From the NCBI GenBank assembly GCA_965116905.1, contig OZ220732.1, forward strand, positions 3,392,001 to 3,456,000: a stretch of DNA of 64,000 nt, given 5' to 3'. A program made the translations under genes and the position numbers. The notes beneath the pieces were generated by a model. It was not told the origin of the DNA and did not search any database. It was given only the letters and a program-made list of their open reading frames with translations. This DNA comes from Longimicrobiales bacterium. Lineage in GTDB: Bacteria > Gemmatimonadota > Gemmatimonadetes > Longimicrobiales > Gaopeijiaceae. Of this stretch, positions 25,957-64,000 are shown one piece after another. Each line of letters starts with the position of its first letter. Within the stretch, counting starts at the first letter, position 1.

Positions 25957-25961
25957 CGGAC

Positions 25962-26430: not shown

Positions 26431-26460
26431 AACCGCCTCCCCCCCACTTTGGCCCCTCTC

Positions 26461-26501: not shown

Positions 26502-26520
26502 GAACCACTTTCTTTGCGAG

Positions 26521-30963: not shown

Positions 30964-31014
30964 GAACGGACCAACCCGTCGGGATTCTGCGAGGAATCGC
31001 GATGGCGCAGGAAG

Positions 31015-31056
31015 GTTGCCCCCGTCCGGTTCGCCGGGCGGGGGCAACACCGTTTT
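31015..31056 (+). terminator. Hairpin/terminator after surface protein copy 1
   Basis: gttgcccccgtccgg-TTCG-ccgggcgggggcaac then accgtttt. Confidence 0.75.
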
Positions 31057-31122
31057 CGGAGCCCGCGCGGAAGCGTGCCGGATGCCGACCACAGAGACCA
31101 TCTAACGGACAAGGACGACTAC

Positions 31123-44354: not shown

Positions 44355-44539
44355 ACGACCTCTAAGCGATACGTTTGTCGCGATGACAACTTTACATGAC
44401 ATTTTCATGGCCGTCATCGGAGACTCCGGTTCATTCTTTCCGGTCCATATCGGGATCTCCGCGACCGGTCAGCACCCCCAAACCGGTCTTGGGTGCCCCA
44501 AAGGTGTCACCCGGCGGGTCGGTGTCGCGGTCAGCCCCC

Positions 44540-44751
44540 CGCCCCGGCCGAGCCCAGGACGTGCGCGCGAAAGTCCTGCCGAAGCGTGTCCACGGAGCGG
44601 GTCACGCCCCGTCAGTTCTCCGCGAATCTCCGCGTGAGCCTTGCGGTTTTCGCGGCGCAGGTTTTCCACCATGCGCCAGCCGAATGCCCATCACCCCCAC
44701 AATGCTCAAGACGAACGTCCCCATCAGACCCGCGGCCTGCCACCAATCCAT
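44540..44751 (-). pseudogene. Frameshifted MDWWQ family copy 2
   Basis: MDWWQAAGLMGTFVLSIVGVMGI, then in other frames WRMVENLRRENRKAHAEIRGELTG and VTRSVDTLRQDFRAHVLG; homologous to 25990-26430; 3' limit approximate. Confidence 0.55.
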
Positions 44752-44761
44752 CCGTCCTCCT

Positions 44762-44803
44762 CCCGTGCCGGTGTTCGGTCCCCGACCCACCGAAGGTACC
44801 GAC
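44762..44803 (-). repeat. Conserved leader/promoter element, copy 2
   Basis: Matches 26461-26501; TTGCGG-N18-TACCTT on the minus strand. Confidence 0.75.
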
Positions 44804-44994
44804 CGACCGACGGGGGCCGCAACGGAATCGCGCCGATCCAGAATCTCGATGGATCGAGGGGCGCCCGAATAGCGGGATGGGACGGGTCATCGCGGCGGTG
44901 TCCGCGTTTGCGATTGACGGGTGACCGGCTAGGTTGCGGTAGGGGGCGAAACGGGGACGGGCAGGTCGTGCTGCCCAGGGGAAGGGACGGTGTG

Positions 44995-45213
44995 ATGAAG
45001 GAATGGCTGGAGTCGTGGAAGGCTGTCGCTACAATCATGGCGGCGGTGGTAGGCGGTACGCTGTGGATCGCTACCAGCATCGGACAAGTCCGAACCGAGT
45101 TGCGGGACGAGATTCACTCCCTGGAGGTCCGCATGGAGGGCCGTCTCAGCGCGGTCGAAGCCAAGCTGGACGTGCTCATCGACGCTCTGGACATCCAGGC
45201 CGGCGACGACTAA
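44995..45213 (+). CDS. Small TM + coiled-coil protein (72 aa)
   Basis: MKEWLESWKAVATIMAAVVGGTLWIA then amphipathic heptads VRTELRDEIHSLEVRMEGRLSAVEAKLDVL. Confidence 0.65.
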   Translation: MKEWLESWKAVATIMAAVVGGTLWIATSIGQVRTELRDEIHSLEVRMEGRLSAVEAKLDVLIDALDIQAGDD

Positions 45214-45320
45214 TGAGGGGCTACGGCACATAGCGTTAGGTTCAGACAAGCGACCGGCGCGGTTGCCTCGGCAACCCGACTGAACGGTTGCCTGGGGGGC
45301 GGGCGGTTCTCTCGTTCGGC

Positions 45321-45344
45321 GAGAGGCTGCCGCCTCTCTTTGTT
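45321..45344 (+). terminator. Possible intrinsic terminator
   Basis: gagaggc-tgcc-gcctctc-tttgtt. Confidence 0.45.
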
Positions 45345-45391
45345 GCCCAACCTGGAACATCACGGCATGACTAGGGGGTTAGTCAATCCGC

Positions 45392-45870
45392 TCAGCTCTC
45401 CCGGGCACTCGCGAGCAGGTCGGCGCTCGTCTCGCATTCGATGACCCGCTGGCCAATACGGGCGAGGTGCTCTGGATCGGTGACCCCCTCCAGCAGTTGC
45501 GACAGACGCTCGGCCGTCTCCGGCCCGAACTTGAGCCTCGCCTGTCGGCAAACCATTGTGGCACGGCCTTCCGCACTGCCCTTATCCGACCACTGCTGAT
45601 CCCGTTCCTCGTTGCCGAGTCCCCGCAGAATACCAACGGTGTAGTCCATCATCCGCAGCGCCCCATGCGGCGATCGATGGTCGACTGGAACTTGAGCAGC
45701 ACGAACAGGTAGAGCCAGCTGCCTTCGACCGCCAGGGCCTTCCAGAGCATGTCGGCGTGCCGCTGGCCGAGCCGTGTGGCAGCCAGACGCCTCTGACCTC
45801 GTTGCTGTCGAAGCTGGAAGACCGCGTCGAGGCCGTCCTCGATCTCATGAGGGCCAAGCCATGCCAGGGC
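45392..45870 (-). pseudogene. Rpn family (recombination-promoting nuclease/transposase_31-like) remnant
   Basis: Fragments in different frames: QRHADMLWK...WLYLFVLLKFQSTIDRRM / MMDYT / MVCRQARLKFGPETAERLSQLLEGVTDPEHL..IG..VIECET; large internal deletion. Confidence 0.7.
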
Positions 45871-45890
45871 ACGGATGACCACTCCCGCCC

Positions 45891-47219
45891 CTACTCCTTC
45901 TCCCTCAACTCCAGCGGCGGCCGCCATTCCTCCACTCCCGGCAGCCGCCGGCCCCAGGTGTTGCCGTAGGGATCGCTCGCCCCCGACAGGAACCGGATCG
46001 CGAGCCGGTGCAGCATGTTCACCTTCGGTACGAAGCCGTGGAAGCCGGCCAGCCCGGACAGCGCCCGGTCCCTCAGTTCCCAGTAGCCCAGGTCGCCGGG
46101 GGTGACGCAGATGACGCGGGACTCGTTCATGAACGGAGGGATGGCGCCCGCAAGCGGCACGGTGCCGTCGCCGGTGTTGCGCCTGACACCCTGGTCCTCC
46201 GATTCCCAGTCGTTTCGGCGCTCGTCGGAGCTGAGGAGGAAGCGGGGCCTGCTCTCCTCGTCGCGCCCGACCCGCAGCGCAACACGGGTTTCCGTATCGA
46301 CACCCGCGACCGCGAGCCAGTCGTCGTCGCGCAGGATGTTCCCGCTCGACTCGTTGCGGGCTTCCTCGCCCGCCGTGCCGCTCCCGGCCACCAGCCTCAA
46401 CCCCGAGATCCGCTCCCGGTGCGCCCTGGCCGCGTCGAGCATGTCCTTGAACAAGTCCGTGCCTGCCACGCGCCAGCCCCTGACCTGGTGCACGATCGTG
46501 CGGATCACGCTGGGCTGCCAGGCGTCCGGGTGAAAGATGTCCGATTCCATGCCGTCTTCCACGACGAGCGCGCCGTCGAAGCTCGGCAGCAGGTGGTAGA
46601 GCGCCGGCGTCATGCGCGCCATGCGGCGTTCCCGTGCCCCGCCCGAATTGTCGCCCAGGTCGGCCGTGCCGGTGGCCAGCTTGAGAATCGCTTCGTGCGA
46701 CCCCTGAAACGGCGACGCCAGGGTCACCACCTTGTGGACGGCGCCGCCGCCGTGGCGTTCGATGTAGCCAGCGATGATCAGCCCGCCCATCGAATGCCCG
46801 ACCAGGTTGACCGTCGGGTTGCGCCTGTAGTCCTCGTCGTCCCTGTAGTGCTTCAGCAGCAGGGTTCGGTCGATGACCTCCTGGACGAACGCGGCCAGCC
46901 GTTCCTCGATCCGGTCCAGCGGCAGCCGCCAGTCGTAGCCGAAGGGAAAGACCGGCGCCGGTTCGTCTTCCTCACCGGCCAGACCGTCCCGCAGCTCCTC
47001 GGTCAGGTCCTCGTAGATGAGCGGGAAAGGACCGCCGGAAGAGACGCGGGCCGGCTCGAGCAGCTCGTAGCGCTGGTCCTCCGGATGCACGGTGATCCGG
47101 TCGTAGCGCTTGTTGCGCACCGCGGTCCAGACGGCTTCGGGCGGCAGCTCGTACTCGTCGTGCAGAACGGATGCCGTGATCCCGGGGATGACGATGGTCG
47201 GGGATGTAGTGATGGGCAT
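45891..47219 (-). CDS. LCAT/PGAP1-like alpha/beta hydrolase (lipase/acyltransferase)
   Basis: IPGITAS, FGYDWRL, VGHSMGG, TLASPFQGS, GDGTVP and H motifs. Confidence 0.85.
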   Translation of the reverse strand: MPITTSPTIVIPGITASVLHDEYELPPEAVWTAVRNKRYDRITVHPEDQRYELLEPARVSSGGPFPLIYEDLTEELRDGLAGEEDEPAPVFPFGYDWRLPLDRIEERLAAFVQEVIDRTLLLKHYRDDEDYRRNPTVNLVGHSMGGLIIAGYIERHGGGAVHKVVTLASPFQGSHEAILKLATGTADLGDNSGGARERRMARMTPALYHLLPSFDGALVVEDGMESDIFHPDAWQPSVIRTIVHQVRGWRVAGTDLFKDMLDAARAHRERISGLRLVAGSGTAGEEARNESSGNILRDDDWLAVAGVDTETRVALRVGRDEESRPRFLLSSDERRNDWESEDQGVRRNTGDGTVPLAGAIPPFMNESRVICVTPGDLGYWELRDRALSGLAGFHGFVPKVNMLHRLAIRFLSGASDPYGNTWGRRLPGVEEWRPPLELREKE

Positions 47220-47312
47220 GGGGGATTCCAGAATCGACCGCACGAGATTACGGTGGTCGGAGAGGGTTTGCAACCGCGCCGGTCGCATGGCCGAACTTGT
47301 CGCTGGGTTCCC

Positions 47313-48008
47313 CTACCGAACCACCGCCGCCCTCACCGACCCAACCGAAACCTGCTCGTACATCGTAGTCGCCGCCTGTTCCACGGTGGCCACGTAGTTG
47401 TGCAGCTCGCTGATGTCCTCGCTCCAGAAACGCAGCATGACGTCGCTCTGTCCCAGACGCGCTCCCTGGACGGGATTGGCCACGAACGCGCGCAGGCCAT
47501 TGGCGAGCGAAACCTGGTAGGCCGTCAGATTCGGTCCGGCTTGCACGGAGTCGAGGGACGGCCCTTCCACGCGCAACACGACGGCTCCCAGGTCGGGCAC
47601 GGCATCCTGCACTATGACGTGCAGCGGCCCGGGTTTGGCGACGACCGTGATGACCAGTGTCTGCGCTGCTGACAGCCCGCCCGGATCGCTGGCGGTCACT
47701 GTGACTGTCGCCGTCCCCTTCGTCAATGCGACGACGGATACGACCGCGCCCGTCACCGACGCGGTTGCCACGGACGCGTTCGATGTCGTCGCGGAAAAGA
47801 CCAGCCTGTCGTTGTCGGGGTCGTTGAAGTAGGCGGACACATCGACGGTCACCGTATCCGTGGCCGGCACCTCCTGGGCCGGAATGCTGCCCACGGCGAC
47901 CGGCGCCTGGTTGACGGGCGGCGGTGTTACCACGGGTGCGTCGTCCCCACAGGAATAGAGCGCGGCCATGACCGAAACGCCCACCACCAGCAGTGCGATC
48001 CGCTTCAT
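47313..48008 (-). CDS. Ig-like domain lipoprotein
   Basis: MKRIALL...YSC lipobox; NQAPVAVGSIP...YFNDPDND.L.F.A...G.ATVTVTASDPGGL.A.Q; overlaps upstream stop (ATGA). Confidence 0.8.
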   Translation of the reverse strand: MKRIALLVVGVSVMAALYSCGDDAPVVTPPPVNQAPVAVGSIPAQEVPATDTVTVDVSAYFNDPDNDRLVFSATTSNASVATASVTGAVVSVVALTKGTATVTVTASDPGGLSAAQTLVITVVAKPGPLHVIVQDAVPDLGAVVLRVEGPSLDSVQAGPNLTAYQVSLANGLRAFVANPVQGARLGQSDVMLRFWSEDISELHNYVATVEQAATTMYEQVSVGSVRAAVVR

Positions 48009-51000
48009 GGCCGCCTCCCCGCAGAATCGCTCACCGTTCGGGGAGCCGGCGCGGATGTCGGCGCACACCCGCCGCCGGTCCCACCGGCATCGGGCGCGGC
48101 ACAATGGTGGAGCCACCTCAGGACGTCACCGGCATTGAACTTGCCATCCTGGTTGCCGAACCACTCCAGAAAACGGACCTGCGCATCCGCAAGGTGCTCC
48201 TGGCCGAGGAGTTGAAGCGCCGCCGCGTCTACACCGATCGGATCCTGCACGTCGAAGCGGTCCACGATCAGGCCATGCAGGTGTGGATGGTCCCTCACGC
48301 CGATCCTGATCGTGTCTTCATGGATCCCCGCCTCGAGCGCAGCGGCCGACCGGTTCCAGACGATCGGATCCGACCGGCCGCCGGCCGTCTGCTCCAATTC
48401 CAGCCACGACCCGCCGCTCTCCGCAAACCACACCGCCGACTCGGCTCCAAATCCCGACAGGCCGACAGACAGCGAGTCTCCCTGCGCCCGAGCCAGGCCC
48501 GCGACGCCCAGGCCGTCGGCCATGTGTAGGGCGATCAGCGCCAGCGGAGGTTCCACCGACAGGCTGTCCAGAAACGCCACGGGGCTCTCGGCGGCCAGCG
48601 GCCCGGAAATGAGAATCGTATCGACGTAGAGTCCGACACCCAGTTCACTAACGTCGCCGGTCCAGGTCACCGTACCGTCACCTGTCCCCGATGCCTGGAC
48701 GAGGTCGGCCCATCCCGGTCCGGATCGGGTCGCGCTCCACGGCGTCAACGCCGCGCGAGGGCCATCGAATTCGACGTCCACCGAGTCCGTGACCGCTTCT
48801 CCGTGCCCCATGGGCAGGGACCTCTTGCTGCCGGTGCGCGCGGCGGCAATCGTGCTCCAGTACCGCGCTCGAAGTTCAACAGGAATCACGACGGGGTCCG
48901 TTCCCGCAACATCTACGGTAATGGTCCCCTTGTGGTCTCCTGGAAGAAGGTCCGCCCCCGTCGCGATCGTGTAATCGAACCGTCCCCGTCCGACACCCGC
49001 ACCGTCCGCGACCGACAGCCAGGGCTGATCCGCTGTGCGCGCAGTCCACGGAGCACCGTAGTCGCCGCGGCCGCGCGGAGCCACGATCACCGTGCCGCCA
49101 AACGACGTGTCCGTTGCAGCGAACGCCGTATCGGCCACCGTTCCAGGGCGTGTGCTTGCAAGCAGCGGAATGTCGATGGGAATCTCGAACATCCCGCGTC
49201 CGTGCGTGGCCGCAACCAGACGGCCCGTACCCGGCTGGGCCGCAAGGTCGAACACCGCAACCATTGGAAACGCATCATCCAACGGGCTCCAGATCCCCCC
49301 GCCCCTGGCCGAGTAGAACACTCCAAGGTCGGTGCCGATGTAGACTCCGGCCGGGTCGGCGGGATCGTAGAGAACGGCATTGACCGGCATGTCCGGCAGG
49401 TTCCCCGACCGGTCTTCCCACGTCTCTCCGCCATCGGTGGTTTCGAACACATGGCCGGTTCCGAACCCTCCGACGACGGCGTAGGCTTGATCGGGATCGG
49501 TTGGGTGGACGGCCAGGTCGCCGACGTAGCGACTGGGCAGACTGCCTTCTTGCCCGGACCACGTCGCGCCGCCATCGCGAGTGGCGAAGACCATCGGTCC
49601 GCTTCTGGCGTAGGAGAGGCCAATGTAGACGACATCAGGATCTGACGCGGAAGGCGCTATCGCAGATATCCTGGACCGCCCGTCCCCCTCGAATACCGGC
49701 ACCCATGTCTCGGCCCGGTCGTCCGTCCTGTACAGTCGTGTCGTGCCGAAATAGAGCCGCCTTGAGTCAATGGGGTCCATGACGAAAGGCGGTATGAAGA
49801 GGCGTTCATCGTCTTCGTTGATGCCCATGCCGACGAATTCGCCGTTCCTGCGCGGCTGGTCGAGCTGGTACTCCCCGTACCAGATGCTCGGATCTTCGGC
49901 GTCGAAAGCGGTGAACCCGCCATCGCCGCCCATCACCTTGGTCCAGATCGTGGTGCCCGCGGCTGACCGCTGAGTCCCCTGATCCTGCGTACCGCCGAGG
50001 GTGACGGCCGGATCCAACGGATGCAGTGCGATCCCCGAGTAGAACTGGGTGATGGCGAGGTTGGTGGAAAGCGACGTGTAGGTCGCGCCCGCATCCATCG
50101 AACGGTAGACGCCGCCGTCGTTGGCCAGGTAGAGCACGTCGGGGCCGGTCAGGGTATCGAAGACCATCAGGTGCTGGTCCACATAGGTATCCTCGGGGTG
50201 GAACTCACGAAATGTGCGGCCGCCATCTTCCGACAGATACAGCAGCAGGGTGCCCAGGTTGACCCGGTCCGCGTCTTCCGGATGCACCGCCAGCGTCATG
50301 TCGTACCAGCACTGACGATGGCAGCTCGCCCCGGTTGCCTCGACGTGCGTCCAGGTATCGGCGCCATCGTCGCTGCGGTACATCAGCAAGCCCTCTCGCC
50401 GGGCATCCTCCGACCGGTCGTAGATGCTCGCATACAGCACATCCGGGTCCGAGGGCGCCACGGCAAGGTTGACCCGGCCCACCTCGGCATGCTCGGGAAA
50501 CGCCGGCGACACGGAGATCCACGACACGCCACCGTCCATGGAACGGTAGATCACGGGTTTGTCCCTGGCGTCGCGGCGATCTCGTCTCAGCGCAGCATAC
50601 AAGAGAGCCGGATCACCGGGCCTCATGACCAGATCCGTCACGACTCCGTCCAGGACTGTCCTCCACGTTCGGCCACTGTTCTCCGACCGAAAGAGTCCGT
50701 AGGTCGACGCGACCATGACCACCGTGGCGTTCGTCGTGCCGGCCGAACTCGGATCGATATGCACGCGCGAGATCCGGGTCCCACCCCAGCCCTGGCGCTG
50801 GAACACGCTGGATCCGAGCTGCTCCCAGGTGATTCCGCCGTTGGTCGACCGCAGAACGCCGCACCCGTAGTAGCTGTCTCCGGAAAAATGCTGCTCGCCG
50901 GTGCCCGCATAGATGATTTCGGGGTTGACGGGGTCGATCGCGATCGACCCCATCGCAAGCGAACATTCGCTGTCCGTCAGAGGCCGCCACGACGCGCCGG

Positions 51001-51397
51001 CATCGTCCGTCCTCCACACACCACCCTGGGCGGCGCCGATGTAGATCGTGTTGGGGTTGCGGGGATGAATCGCGATCGCCGATACCCGGCCGGATGTGTC
51101 CCAGCCAAAATCATCCGTGCGATCCGGGCCGAGCGAACGCCATCGGGACGAGACCACGGAGCCTGGGAAGGGGCCGGCTCCCGCCATGGCCTCCACCTGC
51201 CTCCGCGCCAACTGCAAGCGCTCCGCCAGGTTAACGCCGACACCCGAATAGAGCCGCAAACGGTCGAACTCCATCCGGGCGATGATACCGTCCGTCGTTT
51301 CGTCCTGCGCGGCGGCAGAGTGCGGCGCCGTGGCACCGTGCAGGATTCCCGCCAGCAGGGTAAGCCGGCACAGAAGGGATCTGAGTCCTTCATTCAT
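48005..51397 (-). CDS. Secreted BNR/Asp-box (VPS10-like) beta-propeller protein with C-terminal beta-sandwich (BACON-like) domains
   Basis: Signal peptide ...SAAA-QD; WRSLGP..SGRVSAIAIHP; many S/T.DGG.TW Asp-boxes; GGTQDQG; ATHGRG. Confidence 0.85.
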   Translation of the reverse strand: MNEGLRSLLCRLTLLAGILHGATAPHSAAAQDETTDGIIARMEFDRLRLYSGVGVNLAERLQLARRQVEAMAGAGPFPGSVVSSRWRSLGPDRTDDFGWDTSGRVSAIAIHPRNPNTIYIGAAQGGVWRTDDAGASWRPLTDSECSLAMGSIAIDPVNPEIIYAGTGEQHFSGDSYYGCGVLRSTNGGITWEQLGSSVFQRQGWGGTRISRVHIDPSSAGTTNATVVMVASTYGLFRSENSGRTWRTVLDGVVTDLVMRPGDPALLYAALRRDRRDARDKPVIYRSMDGGVSWISVSPAFPEHAEVGRVNLAVAPSDPDVLYASIYDRSEDARREGLLMYRSDDGADTWTHVEATGASCHRQCWYDMTLAVHPEDADRVNLGTLLLYLSEDGGRTFREFHPEDTYVDQHLMVFDTLTGPDVLYLANDGGVYRSMDAGATYTSLSTNLAITQFYSGIALHPLDPAVTLGGTQDQGTQRSAAGTTIWTKVMGGDGGFTAFDAEDPSIWYGEYQLDQPRRNGEFVGMGINEDDERLFIPPFVMDPIDSRRLYFGTTRLYRTDDRAETWVPVFEGDGRSRISAIAPSASDPDVVYIGLSYARSGPMVFATRDGGATWSGQEGSLPSRYVGDLAVHPTDPDQAYAVVGGFGTGHVFETTDGGETWEDRSGNLPDMPVNAVLYDPADPAGVYIGTDLGVFYSARGGGIWSPLDDAFPMVAVFDLAAQPGTGRLVAATHGRGMFEIPIDIPLLASTRPGTVADTAFAATDTSFGGTVIVAPRGRGDYGAPWTARTADQPWLSVADGAGVGRGRFDYTIATGADLLPGDHKGTITVDVAGTDPVVIPVELRARYWSTIAAARTGSKRSLPMGHGEAVTDSVDVEFDGPRAALTPWSATRSGPGWADLVQASGTGDGTVTWTGDVSELGVGLYVDTILISGPLAAESPVAFLDSLSVEPPLALIALHMADGLGVAGLARAQGDSLSVGLSGFGAESAVWFAESGGSWLELEQTAGGRSDPIVWNRSAAALEAGIHEDTIRIGVRDHPHLHGLIVDRFDVQDPIGVDAAALQLLGQEHLADAQVRFLEWFGNQDGKFNAGDVLRWLHHCAAPDAGGTGGGCAPTSAPAPRTVSDSAGRRP

Positions 51398-51885: not shown

Positions 51886-52887
51886 ATGCGGCAGCATTTG
51901 TTGGGATTGGTCGCGCTACTCGTGGTCAACACGGCATTCCTGGTTGCCATACCCCCCAATGCCAGCGCTCAGCGAGTGCGCGTGATCGCAGACGGGACAC
52001 AGGTGCGACTCGCTCCGGATCCGGATGGCCCAGTCGTGGCGACCATTGACGCGGGCTCCATCCTGGAGCAGGTCGTCAGCGATGGACCCTTCGCTGGCGT
52101 GCTCTTCACGACCGTCGGCGATCACGGACCCGGGCCGCGCAGGGCCTCTTTCGTGCAGCCGCAATACGCCGCGGCGGACGCGATGCAATCGTCTGGCAAA
52201 AGGAAGATCTTTGTGGGCCTCGCGCTCGTCGGCACGTCCTGGGCGGCCCTGCAGTTCCTCCCGTTCCTGTCGGTTCCAGACAAGGATGACTATGCGGACA
52301 ACAGTTCCTATCAGGCCGCGCTGAACAGGCGATCCAACGCCGAGACCGGCCAGAGGGTGTTGGCCGGCCTTGGGCTGGCGGTCTCCGCATGGGGAATTGG
52401 TCAGGTCGTCCGTGCCTCGAGGATGAGAGCCGATGTTGAACTGGAAGCGCGTCGCGCAGCGGCGCCAGGCGTGGAACTGCGGTACGCCATCGCGAGGGAG
52501 CGGATCGGCTCGGGAAGGAAGAAGCTCCTGTGGGGCATCGCTCTCGCGGGCGCGTCCTACGCGACAGTCAACTGGGTCCCCTACCTGGCCGCCCCCGACC
52601 CCCGCGACTACAACGATGATGCTTCGTACCAGGTCGCTCTCGACCGGCGGAAGAATGCCGAACGGGTGCGGAACGGGGCCATGGCCTTGAGCGGGGCGCT
52701 GGGCGCATGGGGCATTTACCAGTGGCGCGCTGGCTCCAGCGAGGTGGCTGCCATTGACGCGGAAGTCGGCGCACGGTCGGCCGCGTTGGAACTCCCGCTG
52801 TCGGCCGCCCACTCGGATGTCGCTGTCGGCTTGTTCGCCACTCCGGTCGGGCGGCGGACCGCGATCGGCTTCCAGTTGGTCTGGTAA
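51886..52887 (+). CDS. Secreted/membrane protein with SH3b-like N-terminus and a duplicated helical hairpin unit
   Basis: AGGAG SD; signal peptide ...NASA-QR; VRLAPD.D.PVVATI..G..L; two repeats SG.(R/K)K...G.AL.G.S......P(F/Y)L..PD..DY.D..SYQ.AL.RR.NAE. Confidence 0.7.
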   Translation: MRQHLLGLVALLVVNTAFLVAIPPNASAQRVRVIADGTQVRLAPDPDGPVVATIDAGSILEQVVSDGPFAGVLFTTVGDHGPGPRRASFVQPQYAAADAMQSSGKRKIFVGLALVGTSWAALQFLPFLSVPDKDDYADNSSYQAALNRRSNAETGQRVLAGLGLAVSAWGIGQVVRASRMRADVELEARRAAAPGVELRYAIARERIGSGRKKLLWGIALAGASYATVNWVPYLAAPDPRDYNDDASYQVALDRRKNAERVRNGAMALSGALGAWGIYQWRAGSSEVAAIDAEVGARSAALELPLSAAHSDVAVGLFATPVGRRTAIGFQLVW

Positions 52888-52910
52888 CTCCGGTGGACCC
52901 GGATGGGCCG

Positions 52911-55463
<2,553 letters not shown>

Positions 55464-55547
55464 CCCTCATGCAATCACATAGCGGGCCCCGGAGCGGGCT
55501 CCAGAACCGACAGCCGGATTCCAACCCAAGGAGGAGGTGAGTACCAC

Positions 55548-56399
55548 GTGTCCAATCGATTCAACGTGTCCGAGCGATTGAAGGTGTCCAATCGGGTCAT
55601 CGTTCTAGGCGTTTCCTTCTTGGCCGGAGTGCTGTGGGTCGCGCTGCTTACGGTCCTGTTGTCCGGAAACCCCGAGAGTACAGCGGCCGATCTGCTCCTG
55701 GACCGGAATACCCGACTGTTTCCGTATCCGTTCACCATCCAGAACCTGATGTGGATCGTCTTCAGCATGGCGGCCGGGGAGCTTGTCGTCAGGCTCATGG
55801 CAGGGCGGCGCGAGAAAGAGCAGCTTGCGCTGGGACTGTTGCCGGAGGACCACCGGACCGTCTTTCGCCAACGGGACATCGGGCCCGTCTACCGGCGTGT
55901 GAGCGAGTCTGACCCCGACGGGCAGTTCTGGTTGCAACGCCTGCTTTCCGGCTCTCTGCTCCAATACCAGAGCACCGGTTCGATCGAGCAGGTCAGCACC
56001 ATGCTGAACATGTCACTGGAACTTTGCCAGAACGAGATAGAGCTGCGATACAACATGCTTCGCTACTACGTCTGGCTCATCCCCACACTCGGATTCGTCG
56101 GCACGGTCATGGGGATCGCTTTCGCGTTGCGGACGGCTGGCACCGTGTTTGCCGGTGCCGACCCGACATCCGATATGGTGTCGATAGGACCAACCATGAT
56201 GGAGGGCATGACGGCCGACCTGGGAGTCGCGTTCTATACGACGCTGCTCGCCTTGCTGCAGTCCGCCGTGCTGATGTTCGCCCTGCACCTGATGCATGAG
56301 CGCGAGGAGCGGGCTCTCAACCGCGTTGGCCAGTACTGCCTGAAGAACCTGGTCAACCGCCTCTACGAACCAAACGCCGGACATGAACAGAAGGCCTGA
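55548..56399 (+). CDS. MotA/TolQ/ExbB family proton-channel protein
   Basis: AGGAGGT SD, GTG start; LIPTLGFVGTVMGI and LGVAFYTTLLAL helices; 4 TM segments. Confidence 0.88.
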   Translation: MSNRFNVSERLKVSNRVIVLGVSFLAGVLWVALLTVLLSGNPESTAADLLLDRNTRLFPYPFTIQNLMWIVFSMAAGELVVRLMAGRREKEQLALGLLPEDHRTVFRQRDIGPVYRRVSESDPDGQFWLQRLLSGSLLQYQSTGSIEQVSTMLNMSLELCQNEIELRYNMLRYYVWLIPTLGFVGTVMGIAFALRTAGTVFAGADPTSDMVSIGPTMMEGMTADLGVAFYTTLLALLQSAVLMFALHLMHEREERALNRVGQYCLKNLVNRLYEPNAGHEQKA

Positions 56400-56435
56400 C
56401 CGGGCAACCCACAACGAACACGGAGGATGACAGAC

Positions 56436-56936
56436 ATGCCGTTGCGACGAGACGACGAAGGGAAGGTAGTTTTCGAACAGACCAAGGCGAACCCGGCCAA
56501 GAAGAAGGGCGGAAGCGCGCCGAGCGACCAGGCCACGGTGCTGCGGCGGAGTGCGGGGGAAACGATCAAGGGCGCCATGGGCGATCCGCCGGTGGGATGG
56601 CTCGTGATCGTGGGCGGCCCCGGGAAAGGCAGTTTCGTAAAGCTCGGTGTCGGCGCGAACGCCATCGGACGGAAGAACAGTGACGAGAACCGGGTGGTGC
56701 TGGACTACGGGGACAAGACGATCTCGCGCGTGCGGCATTGCGTCGTCGCGTACGACCAGGAAAACCGGAAGTTCTTCCTCCAGCACGACAGGGGAACTCA
56801 TCTCGTGTACATCGGCAGCGAGCCCGTCCTTTCGGTTCAGGAGCTGAAACCCGGCATGCACATTCGAATCGGACGGACGGACCTGCGTTTTGTGCCGGTG
56901 TGCGGGCCCGATTTCGATTGGGACGGGGACGGCTGA
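56436..56936 (+). CDS. FHA domain protein
   Basis: GGAGGA SD; PVGWLVIVGGPGKG....L......IGR...D.TISR..H..V.YD motifs; EL..G..IRIGRT.LRF. Confidence 0.85.
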   Translation: MPLRRDDEGKVVFEQTKANPAKKKGGSAPSDQATVLRRSAGETIKGAMGDPPVGWLVIVGGPGKGSFVKLGVGANAIGRKNSDENRVVLDYGDKTISRVRHCVVAYDQENRKFFLQHDRGTHLVYIGSEPVLSVQELKPGMHIRIGRTDLRFVPVCGPDFDWDGDG

Positions 56937-56940
56937 AGCC

Positions 56941-57771
56941 ATGGCAAGCCGGGACAATCCCAGGCGCTACGGCGATCGGGTTGCGGGAGGTCAGATCATC
57001 GGTGCTCGGAAGCGCCAGGAGGATGACTTTCACGTGGTCAGGTTGATCGACGACGGAGATCAGTGTGCGCATCTCATGATACTGGCGGACGGGATGGGCG
57101 GGCATCCTGGTGGTGTGGAAGCCAGCGGCGTCGCGGTCTCGGCCTTCGCCGACGCATTCAAGGCGGCGAAGTGGGAAGGAACGGCCGAGCGTCTACGCGC
57201 TTCTCTCGATGCGGCCGATGCGGCCGTCGCTCAGCATTCGGACCAGCATGACGGCTATTCCGGGATGGGTTGCACACTTGTGGCCTGTGTCGTGATGAAA
57301 GACGGGACAGCGCTATGGACCAGCGTGGGAGATTCACTGCTGTTCCACTTGCCCGCCGGTCGTAGCCGCACCGTAACTCGTCTCAATGAAGATCATTCGA
57401 TGCGGCCAGTGCTGGAGGACATGGTCCGCCTGGGCCGCATGACGCCCGAGGAGGCCGAACACGGCCCGGTCAACCAGTTGCGCTCTGCGTTGACGGGCGA
57501 GGGTCTGACGCTCGTCGACGAAGGGGCGGAAGCGGTCGAGCTGAAGGCCGATGACTGGCTCATCGTGGCTAGCGATGGGCTGAACACGCTGCAGGCGGAC
57601 GAATTACGGCAGCTCTGCGACGAACACCGAACTCCCTACACCGTGGTTTCCGAGCTATTGATGGCTGTCACGGAGCGGGCCAGGACCGCGCAGGACAACA
57701 CCACCGTCATTGCCTATCGGCACTCGCGCGGTTCGTCGAGGTCCCTGTGGCAGCGCCTCTTCAGCCGATAG
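56941..57771 (+). CDS. PP2C/PPM family Ser/Thr phosphatase
   Basis: R..QED, LADGMGGH..G..AS, GCT, VGDS, DHS, ASDGL, QDNTT motifs. Confidence 0.93.
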   Translation: MASRDNPRRYGDRVAGGQIIGARKRQEDDFHVVRLIDDGDQCAHLMILADGMGGHPGGVEASGVAVSAFADAFKAAKWEGTAERLRASLDAADAAVAQHSDQHDGYSGMGCTLVACVVMKDGTALWTSVGDSLLFHLPAGRSRTVTRLNEDHSMRPVLEDMVRLGRMTPEEAEHGPVNQLRSALTGEGLTLVDEGAEAVELKADDWLIVASDGLNTLQADELRQLCDEHRTPYTVVSELLMAVTERARTAQDNTTVIAYRHSRGSSRSLWQRLFSR

Positions 57772-57790
57772 CGCCGGCCCTGGTCCGCAA

Positions 57791-58666
57791 CTACAGCAGG
57801 GACAGCAAGAGGTTGACGGTGAGCGAACCGCCGGTGTCCCGCACGAACTGGCCGCCGCCCACGTTGGCGACACGTTCAAGAAACGACTCCACTGTGCCGC
57901 CGCCAACGCCCGTCTCCACATAGACCGTAGAGATCCGGTAGCCGCCCGATCCGGAGAGATTGTTCGCCAGGGCGAAAGTCTGGGTGACGTCCTCCGGGTA
58001 GCCCGGACTGTCGGTGATCAGCACGATCGCTCGCTCTTCCGCCTGTGGGCGCCAGGACATCCCAACGGCTTGGTTCAGCGCCATCAGGAAAGCCTCGGGA
58101 ACGTCGGAGTTCACGCCGCCGCCCCTTCCCACGCCGATCTCGAGCTCGTTCACGAAGTCCCTGAACGCCGCGAGATTGCCGGGCGACCCGCTTATCTCGC
58201 GCAAATCGAATGTCGTGAGGGGTTCTTCAAAGAACCGGTCGCCAAACGCGACAAGACCGATGCCCAGAGTCGGGGACAGACGGCTCAGGACTTCGCTCAG
58301 CTGGCCCACTTCGGACTTCAGGTCTTCGATCTGCTGGCCCATGCTGCTGGTGATATCCAACGCGATGACCAGGTCGAAGTGCGGAAACTGGGTCCTGGCC
58401 AGGTCCTGAGTGGGTTCGGGACATGTCACCGGGGTGACGACCGGACACACCGGGCAGACGACGGGATCGGGGCAGGGCGTCGGCTCCTCGGGCTCCGCGG
58501 GGGGCGGGCAAACGGGGCAGACGACCGGATCCACGGGCGTCGGGGAGGTATTCGGAAAGTACGGGAAGATCACGACCGATATGAGGATGAACGCACCCAG
58601 CGCGGATGCGAACAGGTCCAGCGCCGACATCCCGAAGATGCTGATTTCCCGATTGCGTCGTCTCAT
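57791..58666 (-). CDS. vWA domain protein with MotB/ExbD-like N-terminal TM and Cys/Pro linker
   Basis: MRRRNREISIFGMSALDLFASALGAFILISVVIFPYF (Asp at TM start); VCPVCP repeats; MIDAS LDITSSM, D.PE, LITD. Confidence 0.85.
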   Translation of the reverse strand: MRRRNREISIFGMSALDLFASALGAFILISVVIFPYFPNTSPTPVDPVVCPVCPPPAEPEEPTPCPDPVVCPVCPVVTPVTCPEPTQDLARTQFPHFDLVIALDITSSMGQQIEDLKSEVGQLSEVLSRLSPTLGIGLVAFGDRFFEEPLTTFDLREISGSPGNLAAFRDFVNELEIGVGRGGGVNSDVPEAFLMALNQAVGMSWRPQAEERAIVLITDSPGYPEDVTQTFALANNLSGSGGYRISTVYVETGVGGGTVESFLERVANVGGGQFVRDTGGSLTVNLLLSLL

Positions 58667-58754
58667 GTTCTGTCTCCGGTGAACGGATTGTTGTTGCGAA
58701 TAGTCGTCGCGCCCTGGGGGATGCGGACGCGAAGCCGGCTGTGCCGGTTCATGC

Positions 58755-60800
58755 CTATGGACATTTTCTGTTGGTGCCGCTTACGTCGTTGACCGCCTGC
58801 AGCCACGCCGCGAAGGAGGCGTTGTTCGGAACGCACAGGTCGGTGTCGTTGAAGTACAACAGCTCAAGTGAGCCGAGGTTCGTCAGGGACAGGGGCAACG
58901 GGCCGGTCAGGTTGGCGTTGTTGTGCACTTCCAACTGTCGCAGGTTGGTGATATTGCCGAGTTCGGAGGGGATCGGGCCCGTCAGATTGTTGTCATCCAG
59001 TTTTAGGCGCCACAGGTCGAGATTGCCGAGTTCAGAGGGGATCGGGCCCGTCCGGTTGCTGGAGGAGACGATCAGGTCCCATAAGGGTAGATCGCCCAGC
59101 CAGCCGGGGATCGGGCCCGGCGTTAGGTCGTTGCGACTGAGGCATAGGCTCCTTAAGCCCCTGAGGTTACGCAGCCAGCTGGGGAACGGGCCCGTCAGGT
59201 TGTTGTTACAAGCCCAGATGGTTCGCAGGTTTGCGAGGTTGCCGAGTTCGGAAGGGATCGGGCCCGTCAGGTCGTTTGCCTGGAGGTTCAGGTACTCCAG
59301 ATTGGCGAGGTTGCCGAGTTCGGAGGGGATCGGGCCCGTCCGGTTATTGCCCGCTAGGTCCAGGGACTCCATGTTGGTGAGGTTGGCCAGCCATCCGGGG
59401 ATCGGACCCACGGTCAGGCGCCAATTCCAGCCGAGGTCCAGGTGTACCAGGCGAGTGAGTTTGCCGAGTTCGGAAGGGACCGGGCCCGTCAGATCGTTGC
59501 TGTTGAGGTATAGAGTCCGCAGATCGGTGAGATTGCCCAGTTCCGAGGGGATCGGGCCCGTCAGGTCGTTTTGGGTGAAATCTAGCCGTTGCAGGTTGGT
59601 GAGATTGCCGAGACTGGAGGGGATCGAGCCCGCCAAGTTGTTGACTCGGAGGTGTAGTGCGACCACTCGCCCGGCGCGGTCGGTTGTAACCCCGTACCAC
59701 CGGTCGATCCGCACTCCCTCGGCCATCCAGTTCTCGCGGTTCTCCCAGCTTGGGCCCCCGGTGGCGTTGTACAAATCTTCCAGGGGCTTGCGATCCTGGC
59801 TGTACGACTCGGCCTCGACCACCACTTGCAGGGATGAGTCCCGCACCCGCGCCCGGAGCCGCTGTGTGCCCCAGATGTCCCCGAGCGTCCACGCGGTCCG
59901 GGCGAGGCCCTGGCCATCGGTCTTCACCGAGGCGGGGCTCGCCGAGCCGTGACCCTGCGACGCACCCTCAAAGACGATCTCGATTCCTACCAGCGGACGC
60001 CCGCTCTCGTCCGCCACGCTGATCTCCACCGGGTTCGGCAGCTTCGCGCCCACCACCGCCCACTGACCGGCGCCCGAAGCCAGCGAGATCCTCACCTCCC
60101 GCACCCGGACCGCAGCGGTCACGGACTCGGCGCCGACCGAGGCAGTCATCGTCTGCGTGCCGCCCTGGGTGCCCACCGTCCACAGGGTACGGGCGATGCC
60201 CTGGCCATCGGTCGTCGCCGCAGGAGGACTCGCCGAACCCGAGCCCTGAGCGGGTGCGAACCGTACCGTCACGCCGGCGACCGGATCCGGGCCCGCACGG
60301 GCCCGCACCGTCACTTCGACGACGTCCCCCGACAGCACCGTCGCCGGCAGGCTCCCCGCCAGTTCGACGCTCACCGGCAGCACCTGGACCGAGGCGGTCG
60401 CGGACGCGGTGCCGACCGAGGCGGTCAGCGTCTGCGGACCGCCCTGGGTGCCGACCGTCCATTGCGTCCGGGAGTAGCCCTGGCCGTCGGTCGTCGCCGC
60501 GGCCGGACTCGCCGAACCGGAGCCCTGAGCGGGTGTGAACCGCACCGTCGCGCCGGCGACCGGGTCCAGGCCCGCGCCTCCCAGGGCCCGGACTGTCACT
60601 TCGACCGACCGCCCCGGCGGCACCGTCGCTGGCAGGGTCCCCACCAGTTCGATCACGCTCACCGCGTCGTTGGGGTCCCACTCGGGGCTGCTGGGGCCAT
60701 CGCCGCCGCCGCAACCTCCCCACGCCGCCGTAGCGACCGCGACGGCAAGAAGGCCGCCGCGCCCCGGCGACGCGAACGAGAAGCTGGCCGCGCCGGTCAT
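58755..60800 (-). CDS. Lipoprotein with three Ig-like (Big_1) repeats and ~11-12 plant-type LRRs
   Basis: WGGC lipobox-like; GSASP....TDGQG..RT.WT.G...G.Q repeats; LYNATGGPSW....NW....I.RWYGV cap; NDLTGPIPSELGNL repeats. Confidence 0.88.
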   Translation of the reverse strand: MTGAASFSFASPGRGGLLAVAVATAAWGGCGGGDGPSSPEWDPNDAVSVIELVGTLPATVPPGRSVEVTVRALGGAGLDPVAGATVRFTPAQGSGSASPAAATTDGQGYSRTQWTVGTQGGPQTLTASVGTASATASVQVLPVSVELAGSLPATVLSGDVVEVTVRARAGPDPVAGVTVRFAPAQGSGSASPPAATTDGQGIARTLWTVGTQGGTQTMTASVGAESVTAAVRVREVRISLASGAGQWAVVGAKLPNPVEISVADESGRPLVGIEIVFEGASQGHGSASPASVKTDGQGLARTAWTLGDIWGTQRLRARVRDSSLQVVVEAESYSQDRKPLEDLYNATGGPSWENRENWMAEGVRIDRWYGVTTDRAGRVVALHLRVNNLAGSIPSSLGNLTNLQRLDFTQNDLTGPIPSELGNLTDLRTLYLNSNDLTGPVPSELGKLTRLVHLDLGWNWRLTVGPIPGWLANLTNMESLDLAGNNRTGPIPSELGNLANLEYLNLQANDLTGPIPSELGNLANLRTIWACNNNLTGPFPSWLRNLRGLRSLCLSRNDLTPGPIPGWLGDLPLWDLIVSSSNRTGPIPSELGNLDLWRLKLDDNNLTGPIPSELGNITNLRQLEVHNNANLTGPLPLSLTNLGSLELLYFNDTDLCVPNNASFAAWLQAVNDVSGTNRKCP

Positions 60801-60810
60801 GCCTGCGACT

Positions 60811-62142
60811 TCAGCGACGTCGCGTGTACACCAGCAGCACGCCGTTCGTGCCCTGGCGTCCGTACCGGGCTGCGGCATCTATGGGCGGAACAAACTGCAC
60901 GCTGGCGATGTCACTGGGCGAAATCAGAGAGGTCAGAGCGAATTCCGTTGCCAACGGGACATCGTCGATAAACACGGCGACGGCGTTCGCGCAGGGGTCG
61001 CCACCACGCACGGTCCCCGCTGATCGATACGTCAGACAAATGCCTTGCCTGCTCATCGTCGTGGGATCCAACATCTGGCCGATGCGCAGCCCCGGGATCC
61101 GTGCGCTTCGAATGACGCCCTCAAAATCAAACACTCGATAGCGCAGCGAATCCATCGAGGCTTCGGTCAAGCCCAGGTAGCGTGCCGCGCCGCCGGCGCC
61201 CCGTTGACGCTGGCCTGTGGCGACGATCGGCTCCAACTCGATGGCATCCACTGACAACTGGATGTCCAATCCCAGGGCGTCGCCGAGGGCCGTCAACGAA
61301 TCGGTCCGGGTAGTGTACCCAAGTTGCCTCGTCTCGATGATCTGTTGACCCGGCGGCACGTTGGTGAAGCGAAACTCCCCGTTTGGACCCGTAAAGGTGG
61401 CGATCCCCGCGCCAACGAGCGATACCGTTACACCCTCGATGCCGGTGCCCGTGGTGTAGTCCGTCACCGACCCCGCCAATGTCACGGGCGCCGAGATGCG
61501 AATCGGCAGATCATGAGTCTGGGAACCGGACCCGGAAACCTGCACGGGATCGCTGCTGTTCGCCCCGAACATGGCTTGAATCGTGATTCCCTGACCGGAG
61601 TCCAGATTACAGAGCCGATACTCGCCTGACGCCCCTGTGCGGGCTGTGGCGATGACCCTCTGATCCTGCGGAAGCTCCGGGTCGTCGCTCAATGCCTGTA
61701 CGGTGGCGCCCAGAAGGGGACCGCCTCCCATGTCCGCGGCAACGGTCCCTTCAAGGTTCAGGTTCCCGCTGCCCTGTTCACCCAGGCACCAAGTCGCGAG
61801 CATCGTTCGCCGCGAAGGCCCGGCCAGGTACACATCCGTTGTCGAATTGGCCGCGACGCCGATTCGCTGCGGCGTGCCGTTCGCGCTGACGGCCGCAAGC
61901 CGGGGGTGGAAGAACGAAATGACGGCGTCCCCCAAGGGAACGTTGTCGATTTGGAACCGCCCGTCGTCTCCCGTCGTGGTCGTCAACCCCGTACCCATGA
62001 TGTAGACCTGGGCGTCGGGCAGCGGTTCGCCGGCGATGCTGTCGTAGACGAGTCCGATGACGGTCTGTGCGCTTGCGAGGCCGGGTGATCCCAAGCCGTA
62101 GGCGATGGCGAGCGCCAGAATTGCTCTTCCGAGCCTGGTCAT
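60811..62142 (-). CDS. Secreted protein with carboxypeptidase-regulatory-like repeats and C-terminal TonB-plug-like domain, no beta-barrel
   Basis: Signal ...LASA-QT; G.V.D...G.PL..A.V...T...G.F repeats; C-terminal VFIDDV....ISPSDIASVQFV....AAARYG..G.NGVLLVYTRR. Confidence 0.75.
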   Translation of the reverse strand: MTRLGRAILALAIAYGLGSPGLASAQTVIGLVYDSIAGEPLPDAQVYIMGTGLTTTTGDDGRFQIDNVPLGDAVISFFHPRLAAVSANGTPQRIGVAANSTTDVYLAGPSRRTMLATWCLGEQGSGNLNLEGTVAADMGGGPLLGATVQALSDDPELPQDQRVIATARTGASGEYRLCNLDSGQGITIQAMFGANSSDPVQVSGSGSQTHDLPIRISAPVTLAGSVTDYTTGTGIEGVTVSLVGAGIATFTGPNGEFRFTNVPPGQQIIETRQLGYTTRTDSLTALGDALGLDIQLSVDAIELEPIVATGQRQRGAGGAARYLGLTEASMDSLRYRVFDFEGVIRSARIPGLRIGQMLDPTTMSRQGICLTYRSAGTVRGGDPCANAVAVFIDDVPLATEFALTSLISPSDIASVQFVPPIDAAARYGRQGTNGVLLVYTRRR

Positions 62143-62353
62143 GATTCCCTCACTTGGTAGAGAGTAGCGTCCTACATTTGGGTCATTCACTTGCGCGCAG
62201 CATTATCCCGTCAGATTAGGGGTCCGCAACCGCTCAACGCAAGATCGGATTATCACTGTGATCTGCCCTAGAACGATAGTTGCCTGATCACTGAACACAT
62301 ACGCATGATAGTATCACGACTCCATTCGACTCTGGCTCCTCTTGCGGGGGTCG

Positions 62354-64000
62354 CTACCGGTTGCCCCTCGACACGGTGATCGTCGCGCTGTGTACCTGCC
62401 GTTGGGCGCCAGCGGCAGTGACGCCGGTTTCGGCATCCTCCACCACCTTCAGTTCGGTTGTGCGGATCAACTGGAGAATCCGGCCTCCCTGTTGCGGTTC
62501 CGTGATCAGGTTGCTGCCGGACACCGCCGTCGCGCGGATGCTGCCTCTGGTGACGCGCCGGTTGACGATCTGGCAGCCGCTGCTGGTCCGGCAACTGTAG
62601 CGAATGCTGTTGTAGACCATGTAGGCGCTGGTGCCGCTGAAGGTGATCGTGATCGTGCCGCCCGAAGACTGGAAGGTGGCGCCGCCGCCCAGCTGGTTGG
62701 GGAACCAGGAGCCGGTCGGCAGCGTTTCGATCGTCTGGCCCGTCGTGTATGTCGTGTCACTGCCGCTGCCACCGTCCTGAATCGTAACCGTGATTGCCGA
62801 AGAGCAGTTGTTGCTCGTGTCCGTTTCGCCCGAAACGGCGTCGACGCAGTCGCCGATGTAGATGGTGCGGGCGGCGGTCCCGGCGCGTACCGTAATCCTG
62901 CTCGTGCCACGGAAAGTCGCGGAAGGAGCCAAGGCGCCGACTGGTTCCGGCTGGCCGATTTCGTTGTCGCTCGTGGTGATGGTGGCATCGTCCGACTGGT
63001 AGGCCCGCCAGTTGGTCGCAGCGGACGCCGCATCGCCCTGGTTGCGTATTGTCACGTCGTACGTGAAGCTGCCTCCCGGCGCGACGGTCACGCTCGACCT
63101 CGAGACACTTATGACCAGATCCGGCCCGCCCGACCCGGTCACCGTCACGCGGACGCCGCGGGAGCAGTTGTTCTGCGTGTTGGATTCGCCCGACACCCGA
63201 TCGGCGCATAGCCCGAAGTAGAAGGTGCCGGAGGCCTGGCTGGACAGCCTGACAGTTGCCGTGATCCTCCTGCTCTGCCCCGCTGGAGTGCTTGAGATGG
63301 ACGTCCTGCCAATCTCCGTGTCACTGGTCGAGATGGACGAGTTGGTGGACTGGTAGACGCGAACCGTGGTAGCGGCCGCCGTGGCGTTGCCGCTGTTCCG
63401 AAGTGTGAACACTGCCTCCACCGACCCGCCCGGCGACCCGGTCACCGACGTAGGCGTAACGGTAGTGAACTGCAGGTCCGGCGCCCCTGCCGACGCCACG
63501 GTGACGCTGATGCTCTGCGTCGCGGTCAGGAAGCCGGGATCGCGGGCGGTCACGGTGATCGTGGCGCTCCCCGCCGTCACTCCCGTGATGGTCACCGTCG
63601 AGCCCGAAACGGAGGCCCTGGCGACGAGCGAGTTGGAGGAGGTCGCCGTGTAGGTGAGCACGTCCCCGTCGGGATCGTTGAAATACAAGGACGCGTTGAC
63701 GGTGACGTTGCGGCCCGGGTTGACCGACTGTGCGGGGATGGTCCCCACCGGTGTTGGCGCCCGGTTGGGCTGCTGAACGGTGACCCGTGCCGTTTGCGTT
63801 GCCGTCAGCCCTTCGGGATCCCGGGCGGTCACGGTGACGGTCGCGCTCCCCGCGGTCAGGCCCGTGATGGTCACAATCGCGCCCGAAACGGACACCCTGA
63901 CCACGGCCGGAGCCGAAGATGTCGCCGTGTAGGTCAGCGCATCGCCATCGGGATCGGAGAAGTACTGCGATGCGACAACCGTCTTGCTCTCGGCCACGTC
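62354..64000 (-). CDS. Surface protein with Ig/cadherin-like and CARDB-like repeats (partial, 5' end outside window)
   Basis: YF.DPDGD.LTYTATSS...TVTARDP repeats; PDL...V...G......RN.G..A.AAT..R.YQS....I..SD.EIG...C.D.VSGE..T.NNCS repeats. Confidence 0.82.
   Translation of the reverse strand, partial: DVAESKTVVASQYFSDPDGDALTYTATSSAPAVVRVSVSGAIVTITGLTAGSATVTVTARDPEGLTATQTARVTVQQPNRAPTPVGTIPAQSVNPGRNVTVNASLYFNDPDGDVLTYTATSSNSLVARASVSGSTVTITGVTAGSATITVTARDPGFLTATQSISVTVASAGAPDLQFTTVTPTSVTGSPGGSVEAVFTLRNSGNATAAATTVRVYQSTNSSISTSDTEIGRTSISSTPAGQSRRITATVRLSSQASGTFYFGLCADRVSGESNTQNNCSRGVRVTVTGSGGPDLVISVSRSSVTVAPGGSFTYDVTIRNQGDAASAATNWRAYQSDDATITTSDNEIGQPEPVGALAPSATFRGTSRITVRAGTAARTIYIGDCVDAVSGETDTSNNCSSAITVTIQDGGSGSDTTYTTGQTIETLPTGSWFPNQLGGGATFQSSGGTITITFSGTSAYMVYNSIRYSCRTSSGCQIVNRRVTRGSIRATAVSGSNLITEPQQGGRILQLIRTTELKVVEDAETGVTAAGAQRQVHSATITVSRGNR

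Follow-up and report, generated by a model that had tools for sequence, protein, structure and literature searches.

Eight open reading frames were confirmed, at their positions and on their strands, between 51886 and 62190 of the window, i.e. of the whole analysed stretch of 64,000 nucleotides. The + strand carries the genes of an SH3b-like protein, a kinase, a MotA/TolQ-like protein, an FHA protein and a PP2C phosphatase, and the − strand those of a plug protein, an Ig-LRR lipoprotein and a vWA protein. As read from the sequence, the likely true starts are 56941 for the PP2C gene, about 60800 for the Ig-LRR gene and 62142 for the plug gene. The source genome is a single contig of 4.2 Mb and 97% complete, and the convergent layout is no assembly error, as contigs from a run of a second study are letter-identical over 56216-58003, where PP2C and vWA genes meet, and over 58565-60922, which contains the vWA/Ig-LRR/plug junctions. 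With all eight reading frames, the Pfam matches and these identical contigs at hand, the layout and the domains that the first-pass annotation had named can be taken as given. Promoter and terminator scans of the locus reached chance level only, and the NCBIfam matches of the locus proteins were below cut-off.

The TolQ/ExbB/MotA-like motor subunit (55548..56399, +; Pfam MotA_ExbB) has 283 aa with four predicted TM helices; it had no sequence match in the PDB and has no ZorA-like tail. Its channel threonines are invariant in the family or close to it, with Thr186 kept in 68/68, Thr231 in 69/69 and Thr232 in 68/69 cases. The trans-pore-helix vWA protein (57791..58666, −; Pfam VWA) combines a TM helix, in which Asp17 is conserved in 61/61, with a Pro/Cys-rich linker and a vWA domain that carries the motifs DxTxS, NxDxPE and TD of an integrin-beta-I-like MIDAS, and we take the NxDxPE pattern to resemble that of integrin beta. 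The MIDAS residues D104, S108, E191 and D219 do not vary among 30 sequences, the predicted fold of the domain is confident over residues 91-291, and its top structural matches include BatB, the anthrax-receptor vWA and integrin beta I domains. For 5:2 motors, the available text of PMC11946911 describes ZorA Thr147/Ser184 as filter and ZorB Asp26 as essential residue, and by helix position these probably correspond to Thr186, Thr231/Thr232 and Asp17. Judged by sequence, the MotA-like/TM-vWA pair thus carries the residues expected for a 5:2 ion motor, in line with the ion-channel pair that had been proposed from the first reading of the locus, and together with a published model of related proteins these residues point to a 5:2 assembly and to the use of protons.

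With the MotA-like protein as query, 70 loci were obtained from Gemmatimonadota, Pseudomonadota, Acidobacteriota, Latescibacterota, Rhodothermota/Bacteroidota and Binatota, the closest motor relatives of the window protein being Longimicrobiales records. Neighbours were sought by tblastn within up to 10 kb. The N-terminal helix of the vWA protein was found in 67/70 loci, the kinase in 66/70, FHA in 58/70 and PP2C in 56/70, and this co-location of the core genes, which had been named as the point on which the idea of a system could fail, is far above chance. The SH3 protein occurred in 9/70 loci, all of them of Gemmatimonadota, and only 1/70 contained the Ig region of the lipoprotein, so that the lipoprotein, originally counted as a member, is outside the conserved core. 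Each of the 67 loci has exactly one helix-bearing vWA gene and none has two, and no ExbD/TolR/MotB family is among the gene clusters that occur in at least three loci. A trypsin-like gene, mostly TM-anchored and FHA-fused, is present in 49/70 loci; none was found in the Longimicrobiales loci, nor was a trypsin-FHA fusion found in the source genome. One could suspect a chance meeting of two unrelated operons, as the vWA gene lies on the opposite strand and as synteny with the closest relative (L001) stops ~25 nt upstream of the vWA gene start, but a helix that accompanies the motor in nearly every locus argues against it, as does the orientation of the vWA gene, which is co-directional with the motor gene in most phyla and convergent in 8/18 further Longimicrobiales loci. 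We give this reading practically no weight: it is refuted for the core and holds for the Ig-LRR gene only.

The receptor Ser/Thr kinase (52893..55463, +; Pfam Pkinase, PG_binding_1 and LRR) has an intact Hanks domain with the motifs GAGGFG, VAIK, HRDIKPAN and DFG, i.e. with Gly loop, beta-3 Lys and catalytic-loop Asp, followed by one TM segment (321-339), a PG_binding_1 domain (359-412), a helical stalk of ~206 residues and a plant-type LRR head. The hexapeptides of the stalk are encoded by an 18-bp tandem repeat of 33 copies (54170..54772, +), and if it forms one helix, the stalk would be ~30 nm long. In Gemmatimonadota, whose envelope we take to be diderm, the LRR head is predicted to be located in the periplasm, and it would thus sense either the outer membrane itself or a ligand in the periplasm and not host cells directly, so that any contact with a host would be indirect. 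The surface sensing through LRRs that had been suggested at first has therefore to be narrowed: the LRR is present, but it is a lineage-specific solution, since kinase ectodomains at other loci are of the Sel1, ankyrin, FGE, PEGA or RDD type, and its predicted position is periplasmic.

The FHA protein (56427..56936, +; Pfam FHA) has N-terminal Thr motifs with T19 and T37 as candidate phosphosites; Thr37 is conserved in 46/46 and Thr19 in 39/46, and 50 acidic-x-Thr-hydrophobic motifs were seen in the FHA tails of 43 related sequences, as compared with a mean of 13.5 and a maximum of 25 in shuffled tails. The PP2C phosphatase (56941..57771, +; Pfam PP2C_2, longest reading frame from 56890) has its metal-binding residues Asp45, Asp67, Asp229 and Asp269 conserved in 63/63. 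A search of the genome with Pfam FHA missed even the FHA protein of the window, and FHA was therefore sought with family-specific profiles and with protein queries. The window FHA was the sole FHA that these profiles found in the source genome, the window PP2C was its sole PP2C_2 match, and the window receptor was the sole kinase with canonical motifs found there, so that the complete circuit of kinase, substrate and phosphatase is open to testing at a single locus.

Among the 55 loci of at least 19 kb, to which the tally of the phospho parts was restricted, an active kinase, FHA and PP2C are found together in 42, none of them in 10, and a mixed set in 3. Two of the three mixed loci keep Gly loop, Lys and DFG, and L029 lacks PP2C but has kinase and FHA. 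Where FHA and PP2C are missing from Longimicrobiales loci, kinases of full-length type have lost the Gly loop, the beta-3 Lys and the DFG Asp and kept the catalytic-loop Asp, and in the others the kinase C-lobe is lost or the kinase is deleted. In 18 further Longimicrobiales loci, of which five repeat earlier loci and two are cut by contig ends, the kinase domain is full-length without canonical motifs in 6, truncated in 2 and absent in 10, and an FHA or PP2C gene as well as an intact kinase were found in 0/18. At the level of genomes, FHA was found in both window-type genomes and in 0/17 of the related ones that carry these further loci; PP2C is present but unlinked to the locus in 2/17 of the latter and linked in none. 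In a quick tree, the phospho-less copies of Gemmatimonadota form one branch (support 99) that is sister to the window type, and they thus represent one loss event, to which L011 adds a probable second, independent loss; the counts of joint loss therefore overstate independence. Kinase, FHA and PP2C, which the first-pass annotation had taken as a unit, are in any case conserved with the motor and gained or lost together. As the 17 related genomes keep the motor while the phospho parts go, the switch is coupled to the motor but optional.

The receptor ectodomain is kept in related genomes whose kinase is inactive, truncated or altogether deleted, and it probably has a structural role in the machine as well. 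The motor is found in 15/23 genomes of the same genus, in each case 61-66% identical to the window copy and mostly without the phospho-layer, so that the window represents the rare complete form. The source genome itself has a second motor copy (C1:1013584-1018022), in which the kinase is deleted and FHA and PP2C are missing. Related genomes and second copy together form a natural series that leads from the active kinase via pseudokinase and truncation to deletion.

These data bear on the direction in which the system works. The motor could serve as input, with the vWA channel probing tension or envelope integrity and triggering the kinase, so that the output would be cytoplasmic phosphosignalling. 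Many loci in other phyla combine a single motor with several kinases and as many as five FHA proteins, which would fit, and a 5:2 motor serves as a sensor in Zorya, as far as described in the available part of PMC11946911. Nevertheless, we regard this direction as improbable, as the 15/23 same-genus genomes in which no live kinase or FHA was found still have the motor, the SH3 protein and the receptor ectodomain, so that the motor must do something there without phosphosignalling, and as there is no recurrent regulator among the gene clusters of the loci.

Outside the core, the first gene of the + strand encodes an exported SH3b-like protein (51886..52887, +) with signal peptide, a Longimicrobiales-specific member with two helical hairpins with acidic loops and a C-terminal beta-hairpin that ends in Trp. 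The window protein had no Pfam match, while an orthologue matches SH3_3 just below cut-off; the model of the L001 protein aligns with solved SH3b domains (Z 11.3, rmsd 2.8, 68 aligned), and the domain in the window is shorter than that of L001 by ~32 residues. The family is narrow (15 representatives at E<=1e-30), the ESM Atlas gave no usable match, and the helical part resembles generic coiled coils only.

The − strand gene 60811..62190 encodes an accessory protein with CarboxypepD_reg (Pfam) and a TonB-receptor plug but without a barrel, the plug being supported by ESM Atlas matches to PF07715 clusters at 0.97, with a SusC match below cut-off. The scan of 70 loci found the plug protein in 0/70, and the gene was at first regarded as unrelated to the locus; this was overturned by the finding that a plug-only gene adjoins the vWA gene in 4/23 Longimicrobiales loci of three genera. 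L154 has two plug copies upstream of the vWA gene with overlapping stop and start, and in L170 the plug gene sits between the motor and vWA genes. Since each of 12 genomes encodes only 1-3 plug-only proteins, adjacency to the vWA gene is unlikely to be due to chance. The closest relative L001 has no plug gene at its locus. The kinship of the window copy with the other linked plug genes is judged differently by BLAST, where its best matches are unlinked paralogues, and by quick trees, where monophyly of the linked genes is supported by 93-100 after removal of each long row.

The lipoprotein of this strand, with three Big_1 domains and LRR (58755..60878, −; Pfam), is a variable neighbour or possible cargo and one of 15 plant-type LRR reading frames in the source genome. 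An alternative reading of the locus would be a surface adhesion or gliding-type machine for life in a host matrix that passes force across the envelope to Ig/LRR lipoproteins, similar to Agl-Glt of Myxococcus with its vWA adhesin. A further plant-type LRR reading frame lies within 16 kb in 8/23 Longimicrobiales loci, as compared with 11/262 tiles of the source genome (without the row of L154, which is the split half of its own receptor), relatives of ~90% identity were found in a run labelled as sponge metagenome, from which a host association of the source genome itself may be deduced, and the available text of PMC12204202 proposes that vWA transducers act in a way similar to gliding. On the other hand, the LRR neighbours are not orthologous, which makes the Ig-LRR gene at most a variable cargo; several of them derive from one ancestor, and surface proteins are in any case abundant in the region. 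In addition, the gene clusters include no recurrent outer-membrane barrel or track gene, and free-living gammaproteobacteria have the family as well. Although host interaction, as it was originally envisaged, is possible, such an adhesion or gliding machine by analogy appears quite improbable to us.

We therefore favour, at somewhat better than even chances, a proton-driven envelope motor with vWA heads and an optional LRR-kinase/FHA/PP2C switch. Direct support comes from the gene content, the co-inheritance, the invariant channel and metal-site residues, the intact kinase and phosphatase motifs, and the joint loss of the phospho parts. In such a machine, five TolQ-like subunits would surround the two Asp-bearing helices of the vWA protein, and its integrin-like heads would take hold of a partner in the periplasm and move it; the likeliest candidates for this partner are the plug-only and SH3-hairpin proteins here and the tethered trypsin-FHA proteases in other phyla. 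The receptor would bind peptidoglycan just outside the inner membrane, with the stalk holding the LRR near the outer membrane. Engagement of the LRR would activate the kinase, which would then phosphorylate the Thr motifs on the FHA protein, and the resulting FHA-phosphothreonine contacts could assemble or release the motor, while PP2C would reset the system. The output would be envelope work, e.g. the placing or remodelling of surface proteins. A phosphorylation-gated machine, as claimed at the outset, is thus supported insofar as the phospho parts are conserved with the motor, but the gate is optional, as the majority of the genomes of the genus retain a motor that lacks it. A far more specific picture, which we consider rather unlikely in this full form, would see here the bacterial equivalent of integrin adhesion, powered by protons and controlled by a receptor kinase: in a sponge symbiont, a periplasm-spanning LRR receptor would read the state of the outer envelope and the assembly of FHA with phosphothreonine would start a rotary motor, whose integrin-beta-like vWA heads would pull the plug protein and thereby deploy LRR/Ig lipoproteins for host contact, and lineages without kinase, FHA and PP2C would run the motor constitutively.

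5:2 ion motors power flagella, Ton, Tol, gliding and Zorya, and we know of none that is shown to be gated by Ser/Thr phosphorylation. The vWA-headed class of motors has so far been predicted only, and the window locus is a minimal, closed version of such a motor combined with a likely phospho switch. The wider family is carried by named isolates, with records of Microbulbifer, Aliiglaciecola, Pseudidiomarina and Alishewanella, and its function is therefore directly testable.

How does the locus relate to described systems? With Zorya, as far as its ZorA5B2 motor is described in the available text of PMC11946911, it shares the MotA-like Thr/Ser filter, the essential Asp in the partner helix and the logic of envelope-coupled signalling, but the window subunit lacks the 70-nm ZorA tail, and its partner has a vWA fold in place of the peptidoglycan-binding OmpA-like domain of ZorB. 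PADLOC, applied to the 8 locus proteins, gave no match to ZorC/D/E and none for the vWA partner; the PADLOC matches of the receptor (MAD6, PD-T4-6) are confined to the kinase domain. A Zorya- or TerY-P-style anti-phage function, in which an envelope breach would be sensed and answered by phosphorylation or proteolysis, could be seen in the weak match of the motor subunit to the ZorA profile (E 2e-4, TM part only), in the patchy spread (3/150 family genomes, 3/39 genomes of an Idiomarina-centred genus set), in the integrase and restriction genes that adjoin L001, and in the defence role that the accessible part of PMC10542128 considers possible for TerY-P-like triads. However, PADLOC matches at E<=1e-10 among flanking proteins (15/118, one being the system's own PP2C fusion) are as frequent as among control proteins (15/113, from 10/27 genomes), and the cluster encodes no nuclease or toxin-like effector. 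Defence, one of the two roles proposed initially, is thus disfavoured, finds no enrichment in the gene context, and has in our view a low probability.

With TerY-P, as far as covered by the available text of PMC10542128, the locus has vWA, PP2C and Ser/Thr kinase in common, but the TerY-P vWA is soluble, whereas that of the window is membrane-anchored with a motor helix, and the TerY-P kinase has a zinc ribbon or OB fold, while the window kinase is a TM receptor with neither. The window locus adds FHA and a motor to such a triad. In the PpkA/Fha1/PppA pathway of T6SS, a membrane receptor kinase, an FHA reader and a PP2C gate an envelope machine. The switch parts are the same, and the gated machine in the window would be the predicted 5:2 motor; VipB/TssC, the one family searched, had no match in the 97%-complete source genome, with a positive E. 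coli control. The earlier statement that Zorya and TerY-P do not match fully and that T6SS genes are lacking nearby thus agrees with the PADLOC results, the domain features and the VipB search, and the locus is none of the three. Ton/Tol and Agl-Glt belong to the same motor superfamily as the TolQ-like protein, and the TM segment and long helical stalk of the receptor resemble TolA. A TonB-receptor plug domain is also encoded near the motor, yet the plug protein has no barrel, and ExbD/TolR are absent from the window locus; with regard to the SHLS motif, no His was found in the TM segments of receptor or vWA protein, and there was no TonB_C/TolA Pfam match. Three canonical ExbB/TolQ-type genes are present elsewhere in the source genome.

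The closest counterparts are TPH-vWA motors. In the available text of PMC12204202 (Mol Biol Evol 2025), pentamers of TolQ-like subunits are predicted whose TPH-vWA partners carry the Asp and mostly come in heterologous pairs, and their function is given as unknown. These motors share with the window locus a TolQ-like gene that is tightly linked to a gene for a TM-tethered vWA protein without tolR/exbD/motB, and the conserved helix Asp and the channel Thr ring occur also in the window family, which differs from the mostly heterologous vWA pairs by having one vWA gene per locus. The main text of PMC12204202, as available, does not mention kinase, phosphatase or PP2C, the matches in its supplement are other loci, and its Fig. 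4c may show neighbouring kinase/FHA genes. MotA/ExbB are not mentioned in the available part of PMC7159879, and a literature search, which covered neither bioRxiv supplements nor most subscription papers, returned no paper on a combination of motor and phospho-layer. In the Idiomarina-centred genus set, 2/39 genomes contain a paired-vWA form (L135 and L136) that is 24-26% identical to the window motor protein, shares Thr186 and Thr232, and has a vWA helix that aligns with that of the window (E 9e-6); its neighbours are FGE-type, and no FHA, PP2C, kinase or SH3 match was found in the fetched stretches. As this paired form is closer to the description in PMC12204202, the window family is a sister subfamily. 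The phospho-layer is described in none of the papers searched, whereas the motor pair has a precedent, since such a motor had already been predicted for related proteins in that paper. Altogether, the locus is a genuine, uncharacterised system of several phyla and a variant of the predicted TPH-vWA motors, and what it newly contributes is a protease-free Gemmatimonadota variant with a kinase-TM-wall-binding-helical stalk-LRR receptor, a phospho-layer whose parts were lost jointly and in steps, and the link of the plug gene to the vWA gene.

The genome from which the window was taken harbors a second copy of the system (G000:C1:1013584-1018022, corresponding to 8444-13290 of the extracted stretch L071), which is phospho-less and consists of genes for an SH3 protein, a kinase-less TM-PG-binding-stalk-LRR protein, a TolQ-like protein and, in convergent orientation, a vWA protein. 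This copy belongs to the pseudokinase branch and not to the branch of the window. Together with an HNH-like ORF, it is apparently flanked by genes that, judging from their translations, are putatively imuA-like (L071:14092-14757) and imuB/dnaE2-like (L071:1171-about 5950), and this apparent position suggests that the second copy and the HNH-like ORF were inserted into a mutagenesis cassette.

An intermediate layout was found in the related locus L154 (8320-10710), where the gene order is window-like and plug genes accompany a pseudokinase, without FHA or PP2C. Its receptor is encoded by two ORFs, and the break falls within the repeat stalk. Within the window-type branch, the SH3 protein varies: the SH3b domain of the window copy (51886-52887) has an in-frame deletion, and differing in-frame deletions occur in P0123, P0124 and P0125, whereas the domain is intact in L001, the closest relative.

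The locus lies in a region rich in surface proteins: it is surrounded by a series of exported proteins of the Ig-domain, LCAT-like hydrolase, sortilin/BNR and CARDB types (window 43041-51397 and 62354-64000). Further upstream, a phage-integrase gene is followed by two large, mutually related SdrD_B/CarboxypepD_reg surface proteins of 1515 and 1611 aa (24841-35910), and a cytochrome P450 gene is found at 38484-39731.

Elsewhere, the surroundings of two related loci include a ZorB-like gene and a viperin-like gene (L054:3786-4595; L009:3160-4182). Two gammaproteobacterial loci additionally carry a second PP2C and a fusion of FHA domains with a thermolysin-like M4 peptidase (L034:17211-19775; L036:17725-20295), and in the paired TPH-vWA (trans-pore-helix vWA) subfamily of Idiomarina-genus genomes (L135:7616-15814; L136:7190-15094), an FGE/GldK-like membrane protein is encoded upstream.
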